From a virus, in IMG/VR virus record IMGVR_UViG_3300031991_000033: a stretch of 64,000 bases of DNA, one strand, 5' to 3'. The position numbers were made by a program, and so were the translations under genes. Numbering within the stretch: the first letter of the stretch is position 1; every line of letters begins with the position of its first letter. The notes under the pieces are model-generated. The model was not told the origin of the DNA. It saw only the letters and a program-made list of their open reading frames with translations, and searched no databases. Positions 7,679 through 51,921 of this stretch are shown here, in pieces.

Positions 7679-8512
7679 ATGAGTGATGCACTTGGGGATA
7701 GAATGAAGGCATACGAAGGACAATACGCCGTTCAGGTATTGATGCCTCGTATCCCGGTTGTTGCTCGTATTGACGGTCGAGCGTTCCACAGCTTTTGTCG
7801 TGGACTCAAGCGTCCTTATGATCAACGTCTGTCTGAACTGATGGTTCGCACCACCGAGTATCTCGTTGAAGAGACCGGTGCCAACTGTGGTTATACACAG
7901 AGCGACGAAATCAGTTTAGTGTGGTACAGAGAAGAATACAACTCGGAAATCTTCTTCAAGGGTCGCCTTTTGAAGATGACTTCGATTCTCGCCTCGATGA
8001 CCACCGCATTCTTCAACAAGTACATTCCTGACTACATGCCAGAGAAGGAGGATATTTTCGCCTTCTTTGACTCTCGTGTCTTCAACGTACCCCTCGAACA
8101 GGAAGCAGCAAACTACTTCGTGTGGAGAGAGATGGATGCAACACGCAATAGTGTGAGTATGGCAGCACAGGCTTACTTCTCACACAATTCGTTGCAGGGG
8201 CAGGGTAGTTCGGAAATGCAAGAAAGACTCTTCCAAGAGAAGGGAATTAACTGGAACGACTACCCCGCCTTTTTCAAACGTGGTACTTACGTTCAAAAGC
8301 GTAAGATCAACATCCCATTCACTGCTGCCGAGATTGACAGACTTCCTGAAAAGCACGCTGCAAGAACAAATCCAAATCTTGTAATTGAACGCCAGAAGGT
8401 GTTCAGAATCGACATGCCGCCGATTCTTAGGGTTACAAACAGAGTGGATGTAATTCTGCGTGGTGATGATCCTCAAACCGAAAGCGAAAGCGATGGTCAA
8501 AGTAACGAGTGA
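7679..8512 (+). CDS. tRNA(His) guanylyltransferase Thg1 / Thg1-like 3'-5' polymerase
   Basis: LGDRMKAYE, ARIDGRAFH, YTQSDEISL, FDSRVF, YFVWREMDATRNS, GINWNDYP and FKRG. Confidence 0.92.
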   Translation: MSDALGDRMKAYEGQYAVQVLMPRIPVVARIDGRAFHSFCRGLKRPYDQRLSELMVRTTEYLVEETGANCGYTQSDEISLVWYREEYNSEIFFKGRLLKMTSILASMTTAFFNKYIPDYMPEKEDIFAFFDSRVFNVPLEQEAANYFVWREMDATRNSVSMAAQAYFSHNSLQGQGSSEMQERLFQEKGINWNDYPAFFKRGTYVQKRKINIPFTAAEIDRLPEKHAARTNPNLVIERQKVFRIDMPPILRVTNRVDVILRGDDPQTESESDGQSNE

Positions 8513-8933
8513 AAAATCTGATCCCTTCGAGATTTTTACAACCTCGAAGCTCGAACGCATTATGAATGGTGCGTTGAAGGAGACTATCCGGGCACACGGA
8601 CCTGTAGATGTCAACGGCATCTCTTCTGTGTCAAAACGTGCCTGTATACAACTCCGAGCCTATCTGCGACAGTTCACTTCACAACAATTGTTGGAAGAGT
8701 CAACTAAGCAGATTGTCGAAGCTGCTGAACAATCCAATGTTGATCTACGAGAACACAATCGTAGATTGACAAAACAGGTTGCGTTTCTCGGCGAAGAGTT
8801 ACGCAAGATTCGTGATGGTGAATCCGAGAATCCGTCTGAGACGGCAAAGGAAGCCATCGTTCAAGCAAGGTCGATTCGCAAGGAAGAGAAATGCCAACAG
8901 ATTTCTGGATCGGAATTGTCTTCGGAACTTTAA
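8493..8933 (+). CDS. Hypothetical coiled-coil protein
   Basis: Open frame filling the gap after Thg1; start uncertain. Confidence 0.5.
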   Translation: MVKVTSEKSDPFEIFTTSKLERIMNGALKETIRAHGPVDVNGISSVSKRACIQLRAYLRQFTSQQLLEESTKQIVEAAEQSNVDLREHNRRLTKQVAFLGEELRKIRDGESENPSETAKEAIVQARSIRKEEKCQQISGSELSSEL

Positions 8934-9124
8934 TTGGTATGTTGATCCACATGCTGTGGCTCCGCTCAACGGCAACTGCTGTTGTGGAGAAAATCAATGA
9001 ATGCCAAAATCGTGATGACGAATGGTGGAAGCGTGGCGAACGCCCCCTTGGGAGCGTGAGGACTACGAGCATGATGGGTAATCTTTTGGAAAAATTTGTC
9101 CGACCTTGTTTTACAAAAAACTGA
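8891..9124 (+). CDS. Small membrane protein
   Basis: GGAG RBS; N-terminal TM helix FWIGIVFGTLIGMLIHMLWL. Confidence 0.6.
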   Translation: MPTDFWIGIVFGTLIGMLIHMLWLRSTATAVVEKINECQNRDDEWWKRGERPLGSVRTTSMMGNLLEKFVRPCFTKN

Positions 9125-9189: not shown

Positions 9190-10014
9190 ATGGCGAAGAA
9201 CACCCAACTGATCGTTATCGATCCGCAGAATGATTTCTGCGATCCAAACAAAGGAGCACTTTATGTGAAAGGTGCTCATGATGACATGAACCGGCTCGCC
9301 GGTATGGTCACCCGTCTCGGTTCCAAGATTGACGACATCCACGTCACTTTGGACTCCCACCACAAAATCCACGTTGCTCATCCCATCTACTGGAAGGACA
9401 CGTCGGGCAATCACCCGAACCCCTTCACCATCATCACCGCCCAAGAAGTTCGTGACGGCGTGTGGACGCCTACTCGCCCGGCTTGGTTGCGTCACACTCG
9501 CAAGAGCTTTGGTGCTCTCGATTACGTGGAAGCTCTGGAAGCCAATGGCAAGTACCCGTTGTGTATTTGGCCACCGCACTGCTTGATTGGACATTGGGGT
9601 CACGGTGTCTTCCCGGTTCTGCTCGACGCTCTGGATAAGTGGGAAGAAGACGAATTCGCAGCGGTCAACTTTGTGACCAAGGGTTCGAACTACCACACTG
9701 AACACTACTCCGCTATCTGTGCGGACGTGCCAGACCCGACCGACCACACCACCGACATGAACAAGGGCTTCCTGCAAACCGTGATCGAAGCCGACGAGAT
9801 TCTTCTCGCTGGTGAAGCTGGTTCGCACTGCCTCGCATCGACCGGTCGTGACGCCGACGCCTTCTTCAGCGACGACTCCTTCGTCAAGAAGCTGGTTCTG
9901 CTGACCGACGCCACCAGCCCTGTCCCCGGATTTGAGGGTCTTCAGGACGCCTTTATCCGTGACATGACGGCGAAGGGTATGCGTGTCACCACAACCGTCG
10001 ATTACCTCGCCTAA
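9190..10014 (+). CDS. pncA: Nicotinamidase / isochorismatase-family cysteine hydrolase
   Basis: Catalytic Asp in VIDPQNDFC; metal ligands TLDSH and WPPHC; Lys in TKGS; nucleophile Cys in AGEAGSHCL; adjacent to NAD genes. Confidence 0.85.
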   Translation: MAKNTQLIVIDPQNDFCDPNKGALYVKGAHDDMNRLAGMVTRLGSKIDDIHVTLDSHHKIHVAHPIYWKDTSGNHPNPFTIITAQEVRDGVWTPTRPAWLRHTRKSFGALDYVEALEANGKYPLCIWPPHCLIGHWGHGVFPVLLDALDKWEEDEFAAVNFVTKGSNYHTEHYSAICADVPDPTDHTTDMNKGFLQTVIEADEILLAGEAGSHCLASTGRDADAFFSDDSFVKKLVLLTDATSPVPGFEGLQDAFIRDMTAKGMRVTTTVDYLA

Positions 10015-10073
10015 ACCGTAGTGGTGCAATTTTTGCACCCTGTTCCAACAACCACACCTTTGGGAGAAAAATC

Positions 10074-10829
10074 ATGCCCAAGTTCAATGATGATAATCTT
10101 GAACAGCACAATAACGCTGGAACCGGACACTACGGTTTCTCGGCTGTCAAGATTGAAGACCTCGAAGCCAGTGAATATACACTGGTGACAATCGTGCTCG
10201 ACGAATCCGGTTCCACGTTCGGTTTCAAAAACGAAATGGAAGCTTGCATCAAGGAGATCGTCAAGGCTTGCCGTCAGTCGGCACGTGCCGACTTCCTTCT
10301 GCTCCGTGTTGTGGCATTCGGCACTCGCATGTCGGAAATCCACGGCTTCCTACCGCTGGAACAATGCAATCCCGACAACTACAACGGTTGTTACGGAACC
10401 AACGGCAACGGTGCCAGCACCGCACTTTACGACTCGGCTGAAAACGCCATCAAGTCTTCGACCGTATACGCTGAACAGCTATCCGATCAAGACTTCGACG
10501 TGAACGGTATCGTCTTCATCCTGACGGATGGTGATGACAACGAATCTACGTCGGGCGAAAACGAAGTTCGTGAAGCACTGCAAGCGTGTATCACCAGTGA
10601 GAAGATGGAGTCGCTCGTCTCCGTGCTTGTCGGCGTCAACGTTCAGTCGCCGCATCTCGCTCAGTACCTCGACAACTTCTATCGCAACGCTGGTTTCAGC
10701 CAGTACGTGAAACTGGAAGATGCCGACGCCAACACGCTGGCGAAACTTGCGGACTTCGTGAGCCGAAGCATTTCCAGCCAGAGCCAAGCTCTGGGAACTG
10801 GCGGTCCTTCGCAGTCGCTCACCTTCTAA
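10074..10829 (+). CDS. von Willebrand factor A domain protein (TerY-like)
   Basis: MIDAS elements LDESGS, STALYD and ILTDGDDNES. Confidence 0.9.
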   Translation: MPKFNDDNLEQHNNAGTGHYGFSAVKIEDLEASEYTLVTIVLDESGSTFGFKNEMEACIKEIVKACRQSARADFLLLRVVAFGTRMSEIHGFLPLEQCNPDNYNGCYGTNGNGASTALYDSAENAIKSSTVYAEQLSDQDFDVNGIVFILTDGDDNESTSGENEVREALQACITSEKMESLVSVLVGVNVQSPHLAQYLDNFYRNAGFSQYVKLEDADANTLAKLADFVSRSISSQSQALGTGGPSQSLTF

Positions 10830-10852
10830 TCGGCACCTGTTCTCCTGCCGGG

Positions 10853-10890
10853 AAAGCTGGGTGGAATTTATTCCACCCAGCTTTTTTCTT
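10853..10890 (+). terminator. Intrinsic terminator closing the pncA-vWA unit
   Basis: AAAGCTGGGTGGAA-TTTA-TTCCACCCAGCTTT followed by a T-tract. Confidence 0.9.
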
Positions 10891-10924
10891 ATCACACTCT
10901 CTTATTGCAACAGGAGGACCAATT

Positions 10925-11146
10925 ATGGCTACCAGCTTTAGAAGTAATGGAGTGACTTTCATCTCCAACGAAGACCTTACAGGGGACGTGATGATTCGTC
11001 TGGGAACACCGGACAGCGAGAAACATGACATTCTTCGTGTACCAGCAGAGGCTATTATTGCCTTCGCAGCCGATGTGGTACGCAAGCGAAAAATGAAGAG
11101 GCTAGAGAATATGCCGCCTCTTCAAGTCTTGACCGAATCAGTTTGA
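10925..11146 (+). CDS. Small hypothetical protein
   Basis: AGGAGG RBS; 73 aa. Confidence 0.75.
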   Translation: MATSFRSNGVTFISNEDLTGDVMIRLGTPDSEKHDILRVPAEAIIAFAADVVRKRKMKRLENMPPLQVLTESV

Positions 11147-11167
11147 TTACCAAACTTGTAAAAATGG

Positions 11168-11224
11168 AAAGCCGGGAAATATCCCAGCTTTCTTCTTTGA
11201 CAGATCAATTTTTCTTCGTAAAAT
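11168..11224 (+). promoter_or_regulatory. Hairpin plus sigma70-like promoter cassette driving the pncB-nadE-PP2C-nadD-kinase run
   Basis: AAAGCCGGG..CCCAGCTTT hairpin, then TTGACA(11197)-N16-TAAAAT(11219); a near copy lies at 44280-44335. Confidence 0.75.
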
Positions 11225-11263
11225 CCCATCAGATCGAAGCTTTCTGTATCTTGGAGAACTGTC

Positions 11264-11613
11264 ATGGAACTCACGCCTGCTGAAAAAAAAAGTTGATCGC
11301 CGAACGCCGACAACAAGCTCAAGAAAAGGTGGACAAAGCTCTTGAAAAGGCAAACGAGTTGGAACAATGTTTGTCTTTTCAAGTTCGACAACTTTCCGAA
11401 TACACTGACGCCGAGAAGATTGCGGCTTTTGATAAGCTGTACAAGTTTGCTTCAGGTGTCTATCAAGCACGCCGAAACGAAGAACGGACCAAAGATTCTA
11501 ACCACTACGCTTACGAAGCGGTCATGGAGCTTCTAACGCCCAAAGGCGAAAGAAATCGTGTCTTTTGGGACCATTGGAATGAACTAGGAAACTTACTTCA
11601 GTGCTGGGAATAG
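11264..11613 (+). CDS. Hypothetical protein with a -1 frameshift in an A9 run (11283-11291)
   Basis: GGAG RBS and ATG 11264 give MELTPAEKK; the body LIAERRQQAQEKVD... is in the -1 frame. Confidence 0.65.
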
Positions 11614-11624
11614 AGGAGAACACA

Positions 11625-12800
11625 ATGCCCATTCAATCTGCCTTAGATAACGACCTATACAAGTTCACGATGCAGAACGCTGTACTCAAAAACTTCGCTG
11701 GCGAAGATGTCGAGTACAGGTTCAAAGATCGTCGTCCTTCGGGTCTCTACAACGAAGCATTCCTTGCAGGGTTCAACCAAGAGTTGGATCGAATGTCCAA
11801 GATGCGGTTCAGCAACGAAGAACTCGCTTATGTCCAAAGCGATCTGCCCTTCCTCAACCGACCCGACTACATTGCCTATCTGCATGACTTTCGATTTGAT
11901 CCCAATCAAGTCAAGGCGTCGATTGATGCTGATGGCAACCTTGATATGGGCATCAAAGGCACGTGGGATTCCACGATCCTCTGGGAAGTTCCTCTGCTTG
12001 CAATCGTGAGCGAACAATACTTTTTGCATTGTGACAAGCATTGGACGATGGACGGGCAGTATGAACTTGCTGCCCAGAAGTCTGATCGTCTCACCGCTGC
12101 CGGATGTACTTACGCCGACTTTGCCACACGTCGCCGCCGTAACAGTGCTACGCAGGAGATTTTCATCAAACAAGCGAAGGGCAAAGCCGGGTTCGTCGGA
12201 ACCTCGAATGTTCACTTTGCTCGCCTGTTCAAACTCAAAGCCATTGGAACGATGGCTCATGAATGGATCATGGGTGTCAGCGGCAAAGATGGTTTGCGTC
12301 GTGCAAATCGTGACGCACTCTGGCGTTGGGCAAACACTTACGATGGCAATCTGGGTATTGCTCTCACCGACACCTATGGAACCGCCGCCTTCTTCGAAGA
12401 TTTCGACGGTAAGTTGGCTCGTCTGTACGACGGTGTTCGTCATGACAGTGGAAATCCGTATGATTTCGGTGACAAAGTGATCGAGCATTACAAGAAGCTC
12501 GGAATCAAACCGAACACTCGGACCATTGTTTTCAGCGACGGGTTGGATGTTGACACAGCGATCAAAATCAAGAACTACTTCGCTGGTCGCATCAATGTCA
12601 GCTTTGGTATCGGAACGCACTTCTCGAATGACTTTCCGGCGTGTAAGGGCAGCAAAGCCCTAAGCATTGTCATCAAGTTGTGGAGCATTGCTGGCATTCC
12701 CGTTGTCAAGATCAGTGATGAACCAGCAAAAATTCAAGGCGATGCCGACGCATGTCGGGTAGCCAAGTGGACCTTCTTTGGAACTCCACTAGACGCCTAA
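11625..12800 (+). CDS. pncB: Nicotinate phosphoribosyltransferase
   Basis: DNDLYKFTM, DFATRRR, GTSNV, TMAHEW (phospho-His), LTDTYG, RHDSGNP, VFSDGL, FGIGT, IVIKL and KISDEPAK match the E. coli-type PncB pattern; GAGGAG RBS. Confidence 0.93.
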   Translation: MPIQSALDNDLYKFTMQNAVLKNFAGEDVEYRFKDRRPSGLYNEAFLAGFNQELDRMSKMRFSNEELAYVQSDLPFLNRPDYIAYLHDFRFDPNQVKASIDADGNLDMGIKGTWDSTILWEVPLLAIVSEQYFLHCDKHWTMDGQYELAAQKSDRLTAAGCTYADFATRRRRNSATQEIFIKQAKGKAGFVGTSNVHFARLFKLKAIGTMAHEWIMGVSGKDGLRRANRDALWRWANTYDGNLGIALTDTYGTAAFFEDFDGKLARLYDGVRHDSGNPYDFGDKVIEHYKKLGIKPNTRTIVFSDGLDVDTAIKIKNYFAGRINVSFGIGTHFSNDFPACKGSKALSIVIKLWSIAGIPVVKISDEPAKIQGDADACRVAKWTFFGTPLDA

Positions 12801-12812
12801 CAGGAGAATACC

Positions 12813-14993
12813 ATGAAAGAATACGGTTACTGCCGAGTGACAGCCGTCACTCCAAAAGTTGCAATCGGCAATGTTTCAGCGAATCTCGAAGAACACATTC
12901 GTGCCATCAACGAAGATAACTTCGGACTTACTGACGACGTTGAAGACTATGGTGTAGAAAGCGATGTTATCGTTTTCCCTGAACTCAGTCTTACCGGCTA
13001 TACTTGTGAAGATTTGTTCTTCCAGCGGTCTTTACAAGAACAAGCGTTGGATGCTTTGCGGCGTCTTGCAACTTTGAGTGAAAACTGGCGTTCGACTGTT
13101 ATCGTCGGACTTCCTGTCTTCATGCAAGAAGATGCCACGCTTCGTAACTGTGCGGCTGTGATCGGTAGTGGTCGTGTTCTTGGTATCGTCCCCAAAACGT
13201 TTCTGCCGAACTACCGTGAGTTCTACGAAGCACGTTGGTTCGCCCCAGCAAAGCCAACCGATCCACAGATGGTCAACATTGGCATTCCTGAACGAGTTCC
13301 GTTTGGTGCCGACTTGTTGTTTTCGCCCAAACGCTACGGTAACACAGCATGGACGTTTGGTGTTGAAATCTGCGAAGATGTTTGGTCACCGATTCCACCA
13401 AGCTCTTTTCAAGCACTTGCTGGTGCAACAGTGTTGTTCAATCTTTCGGCGAGCAACGAAACGATTGGCAAATCTGAATACCGTCGCAATTTTGTCAAAG
13501 GTCAAAGCGGTAAGCTGGTATCTGCATACATCTATTGCAGTGCGGGACCAACCGAATCGACCAAAGACCTTGTGTTTGGTGGGCACAACATTATCGGCGA
13601 AGGTGGCAGCATCGTTGCCGAAAGTGAAAAATTCGTGCGGCACACCCACACTTTGACTGCCGACATTGATGTTGACCGCCTATTGAGCGAACGTGCTTCG
13701 ATGCCGGGAACTTTTGCCGAATGTGCTACAAGAAACATGAAGCCGTTTCGGTTTGTTGAGTATCAGACCAATCCGTTGGTCGAGAAAAACCAAGAGTTGT
13801 ATCGACATGTTGAGGCTCACCCCTTTGTGCCAAAGAACCACACCGAATTGAAGGCTCGTTGTGCTGAAATCTTTGGCATCCAGACTGCCGGGCTTGCTAA
13901 ACGATTGGAGCGTGTATCGAAAGACACATACATTGGTGTGTCGGGCGGTCTTGATTCGACTTTAGCTTTGCTTGTCGCCTGTAAGACCTACGATATGCTC
14001 GGTATCGACCGCAAGCATTTGCACGGTATTACGATGCCCGGATTTGGTACGACCAACCGCACCAAGACCAACGCACGGATGTTGATGGATAATCTGGAAA
14101 TTAGCCAGAAGACCATCGACATTCGTGAGATGTGCATCCAAACTTGGCGTGATATGAAACACATTCCGTTCGGCGATGCGGAATGCGTTGTTGGTGGTAG
14201 AACAATGTTGTTTTCGGAGTGTCTACATCAACACACAGTTGTTGAAGGCTACGAAGAACGAAGAAGCATCCTTCCAGAAGAGTTGACTGTCAAACTCTTG
14301 GAAGAGTGTTTGAAATTCTTGCCGGATGGTGCTCAGGATTTGATCTTTGAGAACGTGCAAGCACGTGTACGCACTTTGATTCTCATGAGCCACGGTTTCG
14401 TGTTGGGAACCGGTGATTTGAGCGAGTTGGCTTTAGGTTGGTGTACGTACAACGGCGACCACATGTCGATGTACAACGTCAATTGCAGCATCCCAAAAAC
14501 GCTGGTCAAGTTCTTGGTTGAATACATTGCAGAACACGAAGTCGATAAGACTTGGGTGAACCGCAATGAAACATACCATTGTTTACTTGACATCGTGAAG
14601 ACTCCAATCTCGCCTGAGTTATTGCCAACCAAAGAAGGTGCAATTGCACAGGTCACCGAAGATAATGTGGGACCATACGAGTTGGTTGACTTCTTCTTGT
14701 ACAACTTTATGCGGTGTGGATTTGCACCGGGTAAGATCATGTTCTTGTCGCAGTTCGCAAACTTTGACAAGGACTACGAGTTGAACGAGATCGGCAAGTG
14801 GTTGAAGTTGTTCTACACAAGGTTCTTCACACAGCAGTTCAAACGAGACTGTGTGCCAGACGGACCAAAAGTTGGATCGGTAAGCCTCTCGCCTCGTGGA
14901 GATTGGCGTATGCCACCAGACGCCGACCGTGACGCTTGGTTGCATGAAGTTGATACATGGCTTGAAATTTACGGAGAATTGGAAGATGATTAA
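12813..14993 (+). CDS. nadE: Glutamine-dependent NAD+ synthetase (nitrilase-like glutaminase domain plus synthetase domain)
   Basis: VFPELSLTGY, PKTFLPNYREFYEARWF and EICEDVW (E-K-C triad); GVSGGLDSTLAL; ENVQAR; GTGDLSELALGWCTYNGDH; PKTL; PISPEL; KRDCVPDGPKVG...LSPRGDWRMP. Confidence 0.96.
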   Translation: MKEYGYCRVTAVTPKVAIGNVSANLEEHIRAINEDNFGLTDDVEDYGVESDVIVFPELSLTGYTCEDLFFQRSLQEQALDALRRLATLSENWRSTVIVGLPVFMQEDATLRNCAAVIGSGRVLGIVPKTFLPNYREFYEARWFAPAKPTDPQMVNIGIPERVPFGADLLFSPKRYGNTAWTFGVEICEDVWSPIPPSSFQALAGATVLFNLSASNETIGKSEYRRNFVKGQSGKLVSAYIYCSAGPTESTKDLVFGGHNIIGEGGSIVAESEKFVRHTHTLTADIDVDRLLSERASMPGTFAECATRNMKPFRFVEYQTNPLVEKNQELYRHVEAHPFVPKNHTELKARCAEIFGIQTAGLAKRLERVSKDTYIGVSGGLDSTLALLVACKTYDMLGIDRKHLHGITMPGFGTTNRTKTNARMLMDNLEISQKTIDIREMCIQTWRDMKHIPFGDAECVVGGRTMLFSECLHQHTVVEGYEERRSILPEELTVKLLEECLKFLPDGAQDLIFENVQARVRTLILMSHGFVLGTGDLSELALGWCTYNGDHMSMYNVNCSIPKTLVKFLVEYIAEHEVDKTWVNRNETYHCLLDIVKTPISPELLPTKEGAIAQVTEDNVGPYELVDFFLYNFMRCGFAPGKIMFLSQFANFDKDYELNEIGKWLKLFYTRFFTQQFKRDCVPDGPKVGSVSLSPRGDWRMPPDADRDAWLHEVDTWLEIYGELEDD

Positions 14994-46635: not shown

Positions 46636-47778
46636 ATGAGGAATCAAGCTTACTGTTCACACCCGTATCGACGTATCAAAATCCAATCTGATGGTACTTG
46701 TGGTAACTGCTGTTTCATGCAGCGTGGAGCCATTGGTAACATTCTGGAATACGGATACGAGGCTGTTTGGAAAGGGATTGTCGCCAACTCTATTCGTGAG
46801 AAGGTTGGCGACAATCTTTTACCAACCGCCTGTCAAACAGCTTCTTGCCCTTACGCTCACCTTACTTCTGAAGAGCGACTGTGGCATATTGTGGATGTTT
46901 CTAACCCACATCCATTCCCTACGGAGATCGAACTCGATCTCCCAGACTCCCACTGCAATGTCGGTGGTCTGAGTCCAAACAAAAAGAACCCGGCTTGCTT
47001 GATGTGCGAACGTCATTTGTATGGCACGGTGCAAAAAGATCGTGTCAACGAAATCTGTGCGGTTATCAAACCGTACATTCAATACATCGATAAGTTTCAC
47101 ATTCAAGGCATTGCTGAGACATTCTGGAAAGACAAAATCTTTGAAGTGTTTGATCTCTTAGATATGAGGTCACACAAGGATCGTGTATTTGTAAGCACAA
47201 CCACGAACGCCACGATATTAGATCAGAAAAGACGTGTTGCGTTCTTAGAGTATCCATTCTCAAGTCTTACTTTTTCTTTGGATGCCGCCACAGCGAGCAC
47301 ATTCAAACTTATCCGTCGCTGGGATATGTTTGAGAAAGTCAAAGAGAATGTTAAAAATTACTGTCAAGAGAAGACGCCGAGTCAGGTTGCTGGCATCCAC
47401 AATAATCTGAACCTCTTAAACATCAATGAAGCCGAAGATATGGTTGTGTTGGCGAAAGAGTTAGGTGTGGATTTTGTAGACTTCAATCCAACTTATGGAA
47501 TACCTGAAATCTGTGTGAACGAACAAAATGTTCATCTCTTCGCCGAGGCTCAATCAAAGATTAAAGAAAAGGCGGCTGAGATCGAGATGAAAGTAAGCTT
47601 CATGCGTGATTTGACGCTAGGATTGAATGTGCCTAGTGAACCAAAACTCATCCAAATCACGGTCGATCAAGTTGTCGATTTGGCAGAGAAGCTTTGGGTT
47701 GATTCAGAAGATTTGATGGCGATTACCGATAAAAACCCAGACATGGTAAAGGTGATCGGCTTCAAACCATTCTTATAG
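46636..47778 (+). CDS. Radical SAM protein with an N-terminal SPASM/twitch-like domain
   Basis: CSHPY..IKIQSDG...CC; C-x13-CxxC (CNVGG...ACLMCER); TTNAT; FSLDAATASTFKLIRR. Confidence 0.8.
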   Translation: MRNQAYCSHPYRRIKIQSDGTCGNCCFMQRGAIGNILEYGYEAVWKGIVANSIREKVGDNLLPTACQTASCPYAHLTSEERLWHIVDVSNPHPFPTEIELDLPDSHCNVGGLSPNKKNPACLMCERHLYGTVQKDRVNEICAVIKPYIQYIDKFHIQGIAETFWKDKIFEVFDLLDMRSHKDRVFVSTTTNATILDQKRRVAFLEYPFSSLTFSLDAATASTFKLIRRWDMFEKVKENVKNYCQEKTPSQVAGIHNNLNLLNINEAEDMVVLAKELGVDFVDFNPTYGIPEICVNEQNVHLFAEAQSKIKEKAAEIEMKVSFMRDLTLGLNVPSEPKLIQITVDQVVDLAEKLWVDSEDLMAITDKNPDMVKVIGFKPFL

Positions 47779-48303
47779 TTTTTGAGCAACCAAAAAGAAG
47801 CTATACTTATCGTCACCCAAGTCTTTGCCATGATCAATTAGCTCGTACAACTTTGGCAAATGTTCTCCTCGAAAATTCTTACCTTCGCCACAGAAAGCAC
47901 GTTTGAAGAACATCATGAATTGGGCGTACCTGTAATCTCTCATGTGTTCCAAGTTATCACCATTATTGTAATGGTCGCCATCAGGTAGATAAAGAATGAG
48001 CTTGCCGCCCGGCTTGAGTAACTTCGTCCACTCTATGAGTGTAGCATAATCGTCTTCCATGTGTTCAAGAACATGTGATGAGAACACGGTATCGGCGGTG
48101 TTGTACATGTGGTCTTCGAATTTAGATAGACCATCTTTCAACATCCCGACACACTCTGTTGATCGACCATCAATACCAACCGCATCTGGTGTGACCTTGT
48201 GTGTGCCGCAACCAATATCAAGTACACGACCTTGTACGTGATCTTTGATCTTGGAATATATCTTTTCTGTTTCGCTACTGTATGCCACCAGATTTCCTAA
48301 CAA
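47773..48303 (-). CDS. Class I SAM-dependent methyltransferase
   Basis: VLDIGCG, VFSSHVLEHMED and LLKPGGKLILYLP. Confidence 0.9.
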   Translation of the reverse strand: MLGNLVAYSSETEKIYSKIKDHVQGRVLDIGCGTHKVTPDAVGIDGRSTECVGMLKDGLSKFEDHMYNTADTVFSSHVLEHMEDDYATLIEWTKLLKPGGKLILYLPDGDHYNNGDNLEHMRDYRYAQFMMFFKRAFCGEGKNFRGEHLPKLYELIDHGKDLGDDKYSFFLVAQKL

Positions 48304-49273
48304 TTACTTCTATGCTAAATTCGCCAACAGGGTGTGCGTTCACAGGAAGTGAATGATCATAGCCATCAGACAAAACCTTGAGGCTTAAGATTTCACCATC
48401 TGGAATCGCTTTATTTAGCAAACCTTTTAGAGAGATTGTGCAAGGAGATTCTGATTCTTCAGGTAGCCAAAACCATTTGTGTTCACCGTTCCATTGGCTT
48501 GGCAGAGTCTTACGCTTCTCATATAGGTCTCTATGAGGCACCATGATAATCAAATGACCACCCGGCTTTAGAATCCGCCACCAGTTTTCAATCGCTTTCT
48601 TGGGGTTGTTGATGTGTTCCAAAATATGGCTGGCATACACTGTTTGGAATGACTCGTCTGGCACACCTTCCATCAATTCGGCATCGCCGTCGCCAAATGC
48701 AATATCCCAACGTCTGAAAGTTTGATTCAAACAATCGTATTGACATCCGATGTCAATGCCCGGTGCGTTAGCTGGTGCATATTTTTCAAACCAACCCTCA
48801 GCAACTCGACGTTCATGGGCTTTCCAAGTTTCACCCAATCGCCGAGTACGATGAAAATCGGCATCATTACGACGATCAACAGGTGGTACACATTCCCACT
48901 TGATCTCGTGATCAAACATCAATGTGCGACGAATAGCATCCCAATTTGGCAATCCACCAAATTGTCGGTCGTCAATATAGACAGTGGCATAAGGTTTACG
49001 ACCACCATTGTCTCTGAAGTCCAAGTCTTTGGGTGATTCGTTTACACCATCAAACTCCAAGCCGTTTTCTTTACAGAACTCGACTGCATCTTTGAGATAT
49101 TGCTTATTGATGTTGTAACCTTCATCTTCACGACACGTGAAGAGGATCAACTTCCAACCAGCGTTTTTGAGTTCTTTTAGGGTTTCAAGAGCACCGGGGA
49201 GTGGTTTTCCAACTTTTGGAAAAGCATGTTCAACGATTGTGCCATCAAAATCTACACAGGCAATCCGTCCCAT
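48275..49273 (-). CDS. HAD-family hydrolase fused to a class I methyltransferase
   Basis: N-terminal CVDFDGT, LFTCR, KPYATVYIDDR; C-terminal GIDIGC, YASHILEH, ILKPGGHLIIMVP. Confidence 0.85.
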   Translation of the reverse strand: MGRIACVDFDGTIVEHAFPKVGKPLPGALETLKELKNAGWKLILFTCREDEGYNINKQYLKDAVEFCKENGLEFDGVNESPKDLDFRDNGGRKPYATVYIDDRQFGGLPNWDAIRRTLMFDHEIKWECVPPVDRRNDADFHRTRRLGETWKAHERRVAEGWFEKYAPANAPGIDIGCQYDCLNQTFRRWDIAFGDGDAELMEGVPDESFQTVYASHILEHINNPKKAIENWWRILKPGGHLIIMVPHRDLYEKRKTLPSQWNGEHKWFWLPEESESPCTISLKGLLNKAIPDGEILSLKVLSDGYDHSLPVNAHPVGEFSIEVIVRKSGGIQ

Positions 49274-49458
49274 CCGTGATGCTCCTTCATATAATGTGCA
49301 AGTTCAACTGATTGTTTGATACTGAGTGATGCGATGCGGTCGCCTAGTTCTTGGATTTCATCTGGGAAATCGCTTGCTAAAGCGACTTTCGTTGGCGGTT
49401 TGTTTGGAGGTCCAGCCGGGGCGGTTTGTGGTTCAAGAACGAGGGTATTCATAGTCAA
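49252..49458 (-). CDS. Ribosomal protein bL12 (L7/L12) N-terminal domain only
   Basis: DEIQELGDRIASLSIKQSVELAHYMKEHHG resembles the bL12 N-terminal helical hairpin (planctomycete-like ELGDKIANLTLKQAKELSDYL...HG, from memory); no hinge or C-terminal domain. Confidence 0.7.
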   Translation of the reverse strand: MTMNTLVLEPQTAPAGPPNKPPTKVALASDFPDEIQELGDRIASLSIKQSVELAHYMKEHHGWDGLPV

Positions 49459-49888
49459 CTACTACCTTTGTGTGATCGCCGGGGTCTTTATTCCATCTCA
49501 AAAACAAAAGACCACTATCGGGGCATATTAGACCCTCAGCAACCTCCACGTCAAGATGGTTTTCTGCAAGACGAGTTGCAATGAACGCTCCTTTGGGATC
49601 GAAAACAAAGTCGCAAACTTTTACCCAATCTTTGTCATTACTACCGTCATGCCAGAAACATTTACCGACCAGAGTGCCTACGTTCATCGGAGCATTTTCT
49701 AATGCCCCGTAACAACGCCAAACACCAGTTTCGGATCGTTTCTCTTCGTTGCTTGCAAGCAACGCCATATAGTGAAATTCATCGTGGTACTGATATTCAC
49801 GCAAGAATGCGATCAGGTCTTGAACCTTAGAAGCATCTACGAAGTTGTGAGATACTAAATCGCAAGCTAGTTTATCGGTGTTAGGCAT
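49433..49888 (-). CDS. Hypothetical protein
   Basis: 151-aa ORF; GGAG RBS. Confidence 0.65.
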   Translation of the reverse strand: MPNTDKLACDLVSHNFVDASKVQDLIAFLREYQYHDEFHYMALLASNEEKRSETGVWRCYGALENAPMNVGTLVGKCFWHDGSNDKDWVKVCDFVFDPKGAFIATRLAENHLDVEVAEGLICPDSGLLFLRWNKDPGDHTKVVVDYEYPRS

Positions 49889-50450: not shown

Positions 50451-51842
50451 TTAAAACTTTGGTAAGAAATGAACAGTGCCTTCCAAGTCCTGTTGTGTTT
50501 GCTCAAGACTTGTAAGAAGTTCCTGAAAATCGTCGGAAGTGATACTGCCCTCAAGTCCCGCATTTACAAAATTTGTTTCGATCTGATCGACCAAACGTTT
50601 AATTTCTTCGCAACGAGCGGCAACTTCGTCGGCAGCTTCCTTGAAGTTCTGTTCGTTTTCAAAGCCATCTCTGGTATGTTCTTCCATCCAGAGTTTATCG
50701 TCATCGACGGTTGTGTCGTCATCTTCATCTACATCAAGGGTTTCTTGTATCACATTGCTCGCCTTACTTTGAGAAACTTGTCTGTCGAAGTGACCCCAGC
50801 GATCTTTCCAATCATGTGCCCAAGGTCCGCTGACTTGGTATCCAATATCAGGATGGAAAAATGTTGAAGAGGACGGTGGTGCGTAAACAGTTTTGGCTGG
50901 AACTTGGTTTGGAGCGTTTCCTTTAGCATCCAAATCAGTAACGATTGAGAGGTTGATTTTCTTGGGTTGAATTGGTCTTTTCTTCCCGCTTGCCGTCCAG
51001 TCTTTTGAAACAGATTTGTCTGTTTTGATTGCAACTCTGTGGAAATTGGAATCTGTTACAATTTGATTTTCTTGATCAATTTTGAAACCCCAGACCTCAT
51101 TTACAGGTAGCTCGGCAAGTTTTTGAGTTCCGATTTCTTTTGAGAAGTTACATTCAGAAACGGCTTGGTGCCAAATTTCGGTTTCTGAGAAGAAGAAAAC
51201 TTGACCGAGTGTTTCTCGTAGGTCAGCCACCCATAAAGGGCGTTTCTTATTACGAAACAGCATAAGGGTTCTTGAGCCATCAACGTGCAACTCGCCGATC
51301 ATGGCGGCACAAGAACCTTGACGAACGACCGACCAGAACTCGTGTACAGACGCAAGTCGTTCTTGCATGTATTGTGGCGTGTTTGGGATTAACAGTGGCG
51401 GTTCAACAATTGCATTTTCATACATTCTCAACAGGATTTCTGAGTCACAGTCTGTTTGTGTTTCATACTTATCTGTAAGGAATGATGCTTCATGAATCTT
51501 CCCGTTGTGAATAACGCCGATACGTTTATCTTCTGACACGAAGGGATGATTATTTTCGTTGTTGCGAGCGTGCCCGACACCGGGCGATGTGCGGCGAGCA
51601 TGTACAAGAAGAAGGTTAGGGTTCAAATTTTGTACTTTTGCCCAAATCGGAATCTGCATAAATTCGCTGCTCTTGATTGGTGCTTTGTGATAGATGACTT
51701 TGGGTTTCTCTTTTGATTCAAGACCCCAAATACCAGCGGCGTCCGTGCCTCGACTTTCAAGCCGAGCAAAGATGCGAGTGGTTAAGTCGTGTGTTACTTT
51801 CGGCTTTTTAGCTTTGCCGATATATCCTGCGATTCCGCACAT
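50451..51842 (-). CDS. Class II (Ntn) glutamine amidotransferase with an acidic C-terminal extension
   Basis: N-terminal MCGIAG, RGTDAAG, HARRTS, NNHPF, HNGKI and DCDSE. Confidence 0.9.
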   Translation of the reverse strand: MCGIAGYIGKAKKPKVTHDLTTRIFARLESRGTDAAGIWGLESKEKPKVIYHKAPIKSSEFMQIPIWAKVQNLNPNLLLVHARRTSPGVGHARNNENNHPFVSEDKRIGVIHNGKIHEASFLTDKYETQTDCDSEILLRMYENAIVEPPLLIPNTPQYMQERLASVHEFWSVVRQGSCAAMIGELHVDGSRTLMLFRNKKRPLWVADLRETLGQVFFFSETEIWHQAVSECNFSKEIGTQKLAELPVNEVWGFKIDQENQIVTDSNFHRVAIKTDKSVSKDWTASGKKRPIQPKKINLSIVTDLDAKGNAPNQVPAKTVYAPPSSSTFFHPDIGYQVSGPWAHDWKDRWGHFDRQVSQSKASNVIQETLDVDEDDDTTVDDDKLWMEEHTRDGFENEQNFKEAADEVAARCEEIKRLVDQIETNFVNAGLEGSITSDDFQELLTSLEQTQQDLEGTVHFLPKF

Positions 51843-51921
51843 AGTTGTTCCCTTACTGTAAGATTCGATTGTAGCAATTTTCGATCCCAAAAACAATAGA
51901 TACTTTAAGACCGGAGGTTGG

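Follow-up and report, generated by a model that had tools for sequence, protein, structure and literature searches.

The window studied here, a 64,000-nucleotide stretch of the IMG/VR virus record IMGVR_UViG_3300031991_000033, carries on its minus strand a small open reading frame (ORF) whose product corresponds to the N-terminal domain of the ribosomal stalk protein bL12 and lacks the remainder of that protein, a form referred to below as headless. A sequence-only reading of the same DNA had placed such a protein at 49252–49458, and the ORF, with the stretch quoted from it, is indeed present there. Two start codons are candidates: the ATG at 49452, which yields 66 residues (P0002, the start used in public gene calls), and the TTG at 49458, which yields 68. 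An AAAGG sequence lies 12 nucleotides upstream of the ATG and 6 nucleotides upstream of the TTG, the latter being the better spacing. The stop codon occupies 49252–49254, and the end of the ORF overlaps the downstream gene by 22 nucleotides. The ATG of that gene (49273–49271) is followed, from residue 8, by the catalytic DxDGT motif of a HAD enzyme, which indicates that the start is sound and that the overlap described in the sequence-only reading is genuine. The features of the locus are collected in Table 1.

Table 1. Features of the small gene, its product and its immediate neighbours (protein residues in 66-residue numbering; AF2, AlphaFold2; pLDDT, predicted local distance difference test; SAM, S-adenosylmethionine)
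Feature	Coordinates	Strand	Support or remark
Small ORF, predicted bL12 N-terminal-domain-only protein	49252..49458	minus	Syntenic copy in phage locus L003
bL12 N-terminal domain homology region (residues 27–62)	49267..49374	minus	hhalign, BLASTP, Pfam PF16320
Phage-specific N-terminal extension (residues 1–28)	49369..49452	minus	Alignments; AF2 models
PPNKPP motif (residues 15–20)	49393..49410	minus	Pro-Pro precedes the helices in every one of the 49 parsed members
Predicted helix α1 (residues 31–41)	49330..49362	minus	AF2 with family alignment, pLDDT 87–93
Predicted helix α2 (residues 45–59), with invariant Leu51 and Tyr54	49276..49320	minus	AF2, pLDDT ~90
Shine-Dalgarno sequence AAGGAG of the downstream gene	49282..49287	minus	Within codons 56–57 of the small ORF; also in L003
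Downstream neighbour, HAD-phosphatase/SAM-methyltransferase fusion	48275..49273	minus	83% identical in L003
Upstream neighbour, 151-residue protein of no known family	49433..49888	minus	3' end overlaps the start of the small ORF

The protein is made of an N-terminal tail and a predicted two-helix hairpin, and it stops 6 residues past the His-Gly pair that precedes the Ala/Gly hinge in cellular bL12. The protein contains no Ala/Gly-rich hinge, and the C-terminal domain PF00542 was found neither in it nor in the six frames of the whole 157,792-bp record, as the sequence-only reading had supposed from the ORF. The DNA past the small ORF codes for the well-conserved HAD/methyltransferase enzyme and holds no remains of a head domain. 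The same reading had overlooked the tail of about 28 residues, which is conserved and always contains Pro-Pro. This extension is modelled by AF2 without regular secondary structure and is missing from the bL12 of cellular Planctomycetota; in a 21-member alignment (A2), conservation of its residues P15 and P16 reaches 90% or more. Helix α1 holds the invariant Gly of an LGD motif.

When the predicted hairpin is compared with 48,161 PDB chains, the N-domain of mitochondrial bL12 ranks first (6gaw_CL, Z 3.0) and that of Thermotoga bL12 second (1dd3_C, Z 2.9, root-mean-square deviation 1.8 Å over 32 of 32 residues), with the N-domain of E. coli L7 (1rqt) in seventh place. The Z values, which range from 2.5 to 3.0, are low because the domain is tiny (~35 residues). 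A Foldseek search of the PDB with the single-sequence model gave no match.

The homology of the small protein to the bL12 N-terminal domain is regarded as settled by sequence comparison. Alignment by hhalign of 21 short phage proteins with 18 Planctomycetota bL12 N-termini gives a probability of 98.6% and an E value of 1.1e-15 over 37 columns, and BLASTP against a Tepidisphaeraceae bL12 finds 17 of 31 residues identical (55%) and 28 of 31 similar (E 7e-13). Identity to Planctomycetota bL12 N-termini, for example P0059 and P0082 (the latter from Humisphaera borealis), amounts to 50–59% over 29–34 residues. The phage and planctomycete sequences match helix for helix, with Gly37, Leu43, Leu51 and Tyr54 invariant, and the LGD motif, the Leu-Thr/Ser turn, the invariant Leu and Tyr and the closing His-Gly all stand in register with cellular bL12. 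The Pfam model PF16320 (Ribosomal_L12_N), to which a match had been anticipated, matches 14 of the 23 members of alignment A1 (21 short proteins and two full-length bL12) at E ≤ 0.1, the best at 7.6e-8, while the protein itself stays below the threshold, with 16.8 bits where 25 are required (E 0.0056, residues 35–62 of the 68-residue form).

The domain is, by the same kind of comparison, of the Planctomycetota type. A profile made from the phage proteins only, run against Planctomycetota genomes in six frames, hits exactly one place in each of the 31 matching genomes; that place is rplL, in an open frame of 130–181 amino acids each time, and no second short copy is present in the genomes that matched. 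Against 5.8 billion proteins the same profile retrieves about 45 short relatives first and then full-length bL12, and every named full-length match belongs to Planctomycetota. A phmmer scan of 1.84 billion representative proteins yields 27 proteins at E < 1e-3, most of them free-standing proteins of 46–89 residues. Two of the 27 (P0012 and P0026) are full-length, with C-terminal halves that match PF00542 at E values down to 5e-20, and all the named sequences close to P0012 are bL12 proteins of Planctomycetota (Planctomycetaceae, Pirellulaceae, Phycisphaerales, Tepidisphaeraceae and Humisphaera). The score of the small protein on the family profile, which includes it among its 21 rows, is 92 bits. 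A word-indexed protein search with the single protein matched nothing except the query, phmmer with the same query found no match among PDB sequences, and the family profile found in the PDB only an insignificant match to bL12m (E 0.27). The claims that this is a phage bL12 restricted to its N-terminal domain, and that its pattern resembles that of planctomycete bL12, both stand up to these comparisons.

The closest relative, P0003, is encoded on a phage contig (L003) with the same gene order and the same overlaps. The order common to both consists of a glutamine amidotransferase-like gene, a PDDEXK nuclease, an orphan, the short gene, the HAD/methyltransferase and a methyltransferase. The two short genes share 54% amino-acid identity, and in the part that overlaps no other gene the proportion of nonsynonymous differences (pN) is 0.26–0.29, set against a saturated proportion of synonymous differences (pS) of 0.78–0.84 there and 0.7–0.84 between the two phages; by this measure the small gene is under purifying selection. 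The question whether related phages also carry N-terminal-domain-only versions is answered in the affirmative by P0003 and by about 50 others.

Pooling both protein scans gives a short family of about 50 members, 46–89 residues long with a median of 60. Four short entries in which a hinge is followed by unrelated residues were excluded, as they look like broken-off cellular rplL. The family architecture comprises an N-terminal tail with Pro-Pro, the two-helix hairpin and an end within 27 residues of helix 2. The median number of residues is 31 before the LGD motif and 10 after the conserved Tyr, the Ala and Gly fraction being 0.15, and an aromatic-x-Asp sequence stands directly before helix 1 in 41 of 49 members. 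Since the protein keeps 54% identity although synonymous sites are saturated, and about 50 relatives have the same architecture, the headless form is, on this comparative evidence, a maintained design and not a product of decay.

The family of about 50 headless phage bL12 proteins is apparently undescribed. No N-domain-only phage bL12, natural headless competitor or mention of the Pfam name or accession was found in the searchable literature. No match came from a tblastn search of 50,697 deposited phage genomes, scanning IMG/VR for the upstream neighbour or for the family motif brought up no relatives, and blastn of the 5-kb neighbourhood found a single short 67% match, in a 595-kb uncultured phage. 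Clusters of PF16320-only proteins of 64–85 residues, labelled Planctomycetota and Uroviricota, are present in the ESM Atlas (a lead only, with scores below 0.9), which indicates that automatic annotation has seen such proteins.

All nine loci examined, the window and those of eight relatives, have a phage-like appearance. One relative lies on a small contig with portal, capsid and HNH genes, and the others lie in dense small-ORF regions of contigs of 20.9, 171, 178, 276, 282 and 634 kb; rIIB, RNA ligase, Ro60-like, PTH2 and YqeY genes occur in the relatives' contigs. At four of the eight relatives' loci the gene stands within 35 nucleotides to 1.2 kb of transfer-messenger RNA (tmRNA) or tRNA genes. 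In L009, a 171-kb phage contig, the headless gene (8001–8186) ends 35 nucleotides before a tmRNA at 8221–8586, which matches the Rfam model RF00023 over its full length (90.8 bits, with no ARAGORN call), and an array of ten tRNAs (9974–13882) follows 1.8 kb past the headless gene, with Ro60-like vWA and RNA ligase genes nearby. A tRNA-Lys gene (8772–8845) is located 0.6 kb from the headless gene in L008 and a tRNA-Arg gene (8922–8995) 1.0 kb from it in L105, while in L104 (region 1–20204 of the 634-kb contig) 27 tRNA genes fall within 10 kb, the nearest 1.2 kb away. YqeY, tRNA_bind and PTH2 domain proteins are encoded near the tRNA-associated members in L104, L008 and L105. No tRNA is present in the window itself, and the distant family loci have no neighbours in common beyond a generic methyltransferase fold.

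The record is read as a fragment of a very large myovirus, because its 157,792 bp correspond to a CheckV completeness of ~31% and the window codes for a tail sheath, a T4-type baseplate, ribonucleotide reductase, CTP synthase, NAD synthase and other metabolic enzymes. The small ORF lies outside any rplJ-rplL operon, its neighbours being the PDDEXK nuclease, the orphan and the HAD/methyltransferase. In the downstream fusion an N-terminal HAD-type phosphatase (named "phosphoheptose isomerase" in PHROG) is joined to a class-I SAM methyltransferase, and a second methyltransferase gene follows at 47773–48303. The last ~10 codons of the small ORF are doubly constrained, because the Shine-Dalgarno sequence and the start of this downstream gene lie there. 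The 151-residue upstream protein has no Pfam or PHROG match and is only 22% identical to its 131-residue positional counterpart in L003, against 54–85% for the flanking genes, which marks it as a fast-evolving orphan. Further upstream, at 50451–51896 on the minus strand, a 481-residue protein pairs a class-II glutamine amidotransferase domain at its N-terminus with a long, acidic-rich C-terminal region that has no family match; it is 64% identical to its counterpart in the related phage. No uL10, bS21, bL12 head, tRNA, Rfam RNA or 23S-like stretch was found in the record, that is, in ~31% of the genome.

Phages carry copies of exchangeable ribosomal proteins, and to our knowledge bL12 is unique among ribosomal proteins in being present in several exchangeable copies. 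The phage bL12 genes reported by Mizuno et al. 2019 (PMC6375957), which the sequence-only reading took as its precedent, do exist and are similar to the present family in being phage genes that come from host bL12 and are kept by purifying selection. However, they were found with the PF00542 model of the head domain, which is often located within larger proteins, and are proposed to act as translation-factor interfaces. They thus represent the C-terminal, factor-binding domain, whereas the headless family represents the opposite half, the anchoring domain only. Compared with the bL12 of Planctomycetota, the phage protein has a similar hairpin but is devoid of the Ala/Gly hinge and the C-terminal domain, carries an additional Pro-Pro tail of ~28 residues and is encoded by the phage, outside the rplJ-rplL operon.

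Five full-length metagenomic bL12 (P0012, P0029, P0088, P0026 and P0177) possess an N-terminal extension of the phage type. They share with the headless protein a Glu-Thr-Gln start and an aromatic-Pro-Asp sequence before helix 1, but unlike it they keep the linker and the PF00542 C-terminal domain. P0012 is 55% identical to the headless protein over 40 residues and lies on a 44-kb contig without ribosomal neighbours. These phage-type full-length proteins are probable ancestors or sisters of the headless form, which was probably derived from a Planctomycetota-type bL12 via full-length phage-borne copies with a similar N-terminal extension. As full-length bL12 share that extension, the comparison suggests that phages acquired the full protein first and lost the hinge and head later.

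A host among the Planctomycetota is rather probable, an assignment that derives from the similarity of this one gene. An ESM Atlas look-up of the CTP synthase gave nearest clusters of mixed phyla with no hint of Planctomycetota, and the sequencing runs listed for the sequence bear biofilm and cave metagenome labels, with no RNA run among those listed. A Pro-Gly-x-x-Leu segment occurs twice, in similar form, in the C-terminal tails of planctomycete uL10 (rplJ genes at loci L011–L090), which would fit two sites for bL12 dimers. Within this uL10 set, locus L024 is filed under a Nitrosopumilus metagenome-assembled genome, probably owing to a binning error.

The N-terminal domain of bL12 is by itself sufficient for dimerization and for attachment to the C-terminal helix of uL10 at sites of 10 residues, and the recruitment and activation of IF2, EF-Tu, EF-G and RF3 fall to the C-terminal domains. 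In E. coli, the L12 dimers occupy neighbouring sites of 10 residues each at the C-terminus of uL10; when ribosomes have one L12 dimer in place of two, growth and translation are slower, as are the steps that depend on IF2 and EF-G (Mandava et al. 2012, PMC3299993). By homology, the phage protein of 66–68 residues would combine its Pro-Pro tail with a dimer-forming, uL10-clamping hairpin and would end where the hinge should begin. Its most likely action during infection would be to enter the host stalk, where it could sit on a uL10 site as a homodimer or pair with host bL12 in a heterodimer. The stalk, whether on ribosomes or in free uL10 complexes, would in that case bear fewer of the C-terminal domains that recruit factors and would present the phage tail in their place. 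Made in quantity, the headless copy would take uL10 sites or give one-headed mixed dimers, and steps that depend on IF2 and EF-G might be slowed or retuned. Candidate gains for the phage are slower host initiation, a shifted balance of factor use and the presentation of the Pro-Pro tail on the stalk. The actions put forward in the sequence-only reading, namely a dominant-negative hold on stalk sites, retuned translation or protection of the stalk from stalk-dependent toxins, would be candidates as well. If the phage protein does take a uL10 site, the expected outcome resembles that in the E. coli strain JE105 with its single L12 dimer (PMC3299993), where a uL10 site was deleted in the laboratory, whereas the phage protein would compete for one. 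That the headless bL12 enters the host stalk, by occupying uL10 sites or by pairing with host bL12, is proposed with moderate confidence. When two copies of the protein were modelled with the C-terminal 65 residues of a Phycisphaeraceae uL10, the predicted complex scored 0.02, where the mark is 0.32, a result that counts for neither side.

Several points weigh against entry into the stalk. Binding to uL10 or bL12 and its consequence for translation are deduced from homology, and cutting the capacity of ribosomes that the phage itself needs is of no obvious benefit. Part of the C-terminal conservation of the small ORF is not evidence for protein function, since the Shine-Dalgarno sequence and start of the downstream gene reside there. 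The neighbours in the window are genes of nucleotide metabolism and modification and not of translation, and besides the small gene nothing points to a Planctomycetota host. The tail, conserved as well as the helices are, is the main unexplained feature of the family, and its invariant Pro-Pro suggests a function beyond simple site occupation.

Two of these observations, neighbours and tail, would also fit a hairpin exapted away from the ribosome, as a dimerization module or as a helix-docking module for an amphipathic helix of the phage or host, with the Pro-Pro tail (P15 and P16 at least 90% conserved, Pro-Pro in 49 of 49 members) as the functional end. Such a use has a parallel in the predicted bacterial lipoproteins P0004, P0007 and P0023, in which a signal peptide and Cys precede two tandem modules similar to the bL12 N-domain, so that the hairpin can serve outside the ribosome and, in this predicted case, outside the cytoplasm; a weak match at the C-terminus of the 1279-residue fungal protein P0014 (Mycena epipterygia) points the same way. 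However, the phage protein is 55% identical to cellular bL12, closer than the lipoprotein copies need be, its N-terminal extension is common to the phage full-length bL12 (P0012, P0026 and P0029), which ties the family to stalk proteins, and its relatives adjoin tmRNA and tRNA arrays. An off-ribosome role is accordingly considered rather unlikely, although it is the strongest of the alternatives. The gene for P0007 (L106:7001–7396) is situated on an 83-kb contig that also has genes for an AbiE toxin-antitoxin and a peptidase M48. An ESM Atlas cluster of 64-residue PF16320-only proteins is labelled Basidiomycota, and the fungal matches may be contamination.

A more elaborate version of stalk entry assigns the tail a role on the ribosome. 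The headless bL12 would replace host bL12, and its invariant Pro-Pro tail would be a new head, which docks a phage factor or marks phage-specialized ribosomes; the protein would then be one piece of a huge-phage toolkit directed at the factor-binding site of the ribosome, together with the tmRNA and tRNA modules. This proposal is tentative and, on the sequences at hand, unlikely.

Another possibility is that the targets are free stalk components, with the protein capping uL10 or sequestering bL12 and thereby disturbing stalk assembly or strengthening rplJL repression, which would stop the making of new host ribosomes. In E. coli, translation of rplJL is autoregulated by the uL10-(bL12)4 complex; we know of no study of this regulation in Planctomycetota. 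The homology evidence is the same as for entry into the stalk, and nothing in it separates free stalk parts from assembled ribosomes; action on free components is regarded as distinctly improbable.

Finally, the suspicion that a full-length phage bL12 gene has decayed to this remnant, or that a spurious ORF resembles bL12 by chance, could draw on the Pfam score below threshold (16.8 bits against 25), the overlap of both ORF ends with neighbouring genes and the relative P0175 (N-domain, Pro-rich linker and seemingly degraded head domain), yet this has next to no likelihood and is refuted in practice by the profile-profile match (E 1e-15), the conservation in L003, pN far below saturated pS in the non-overlapped core, the end point common to ~50 relatives from different phages and the well-conserved enzyme, not C-terminal-domain remains, encoded downstream: where the sequence-only reading had allowed for full-length relatives and a copy decaying without purifying selection, the relatives are short and the gene is conserved.

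The anchor-only family is the mirror case of the reported phage bL12 heads and a natural counterpart of a dominant-negative construct. If the headless bL12 does enter the stalk, it would offer large phages a direct way to throttle or re-route host translation, and it would give initial access to the translation biology of Planctomycetota and to their phages. It adds a variant to the virus-encoded homologues of ribosomal proteins, and with it a clear, testable hypothesis on how phages may control the ribosomal stalk.

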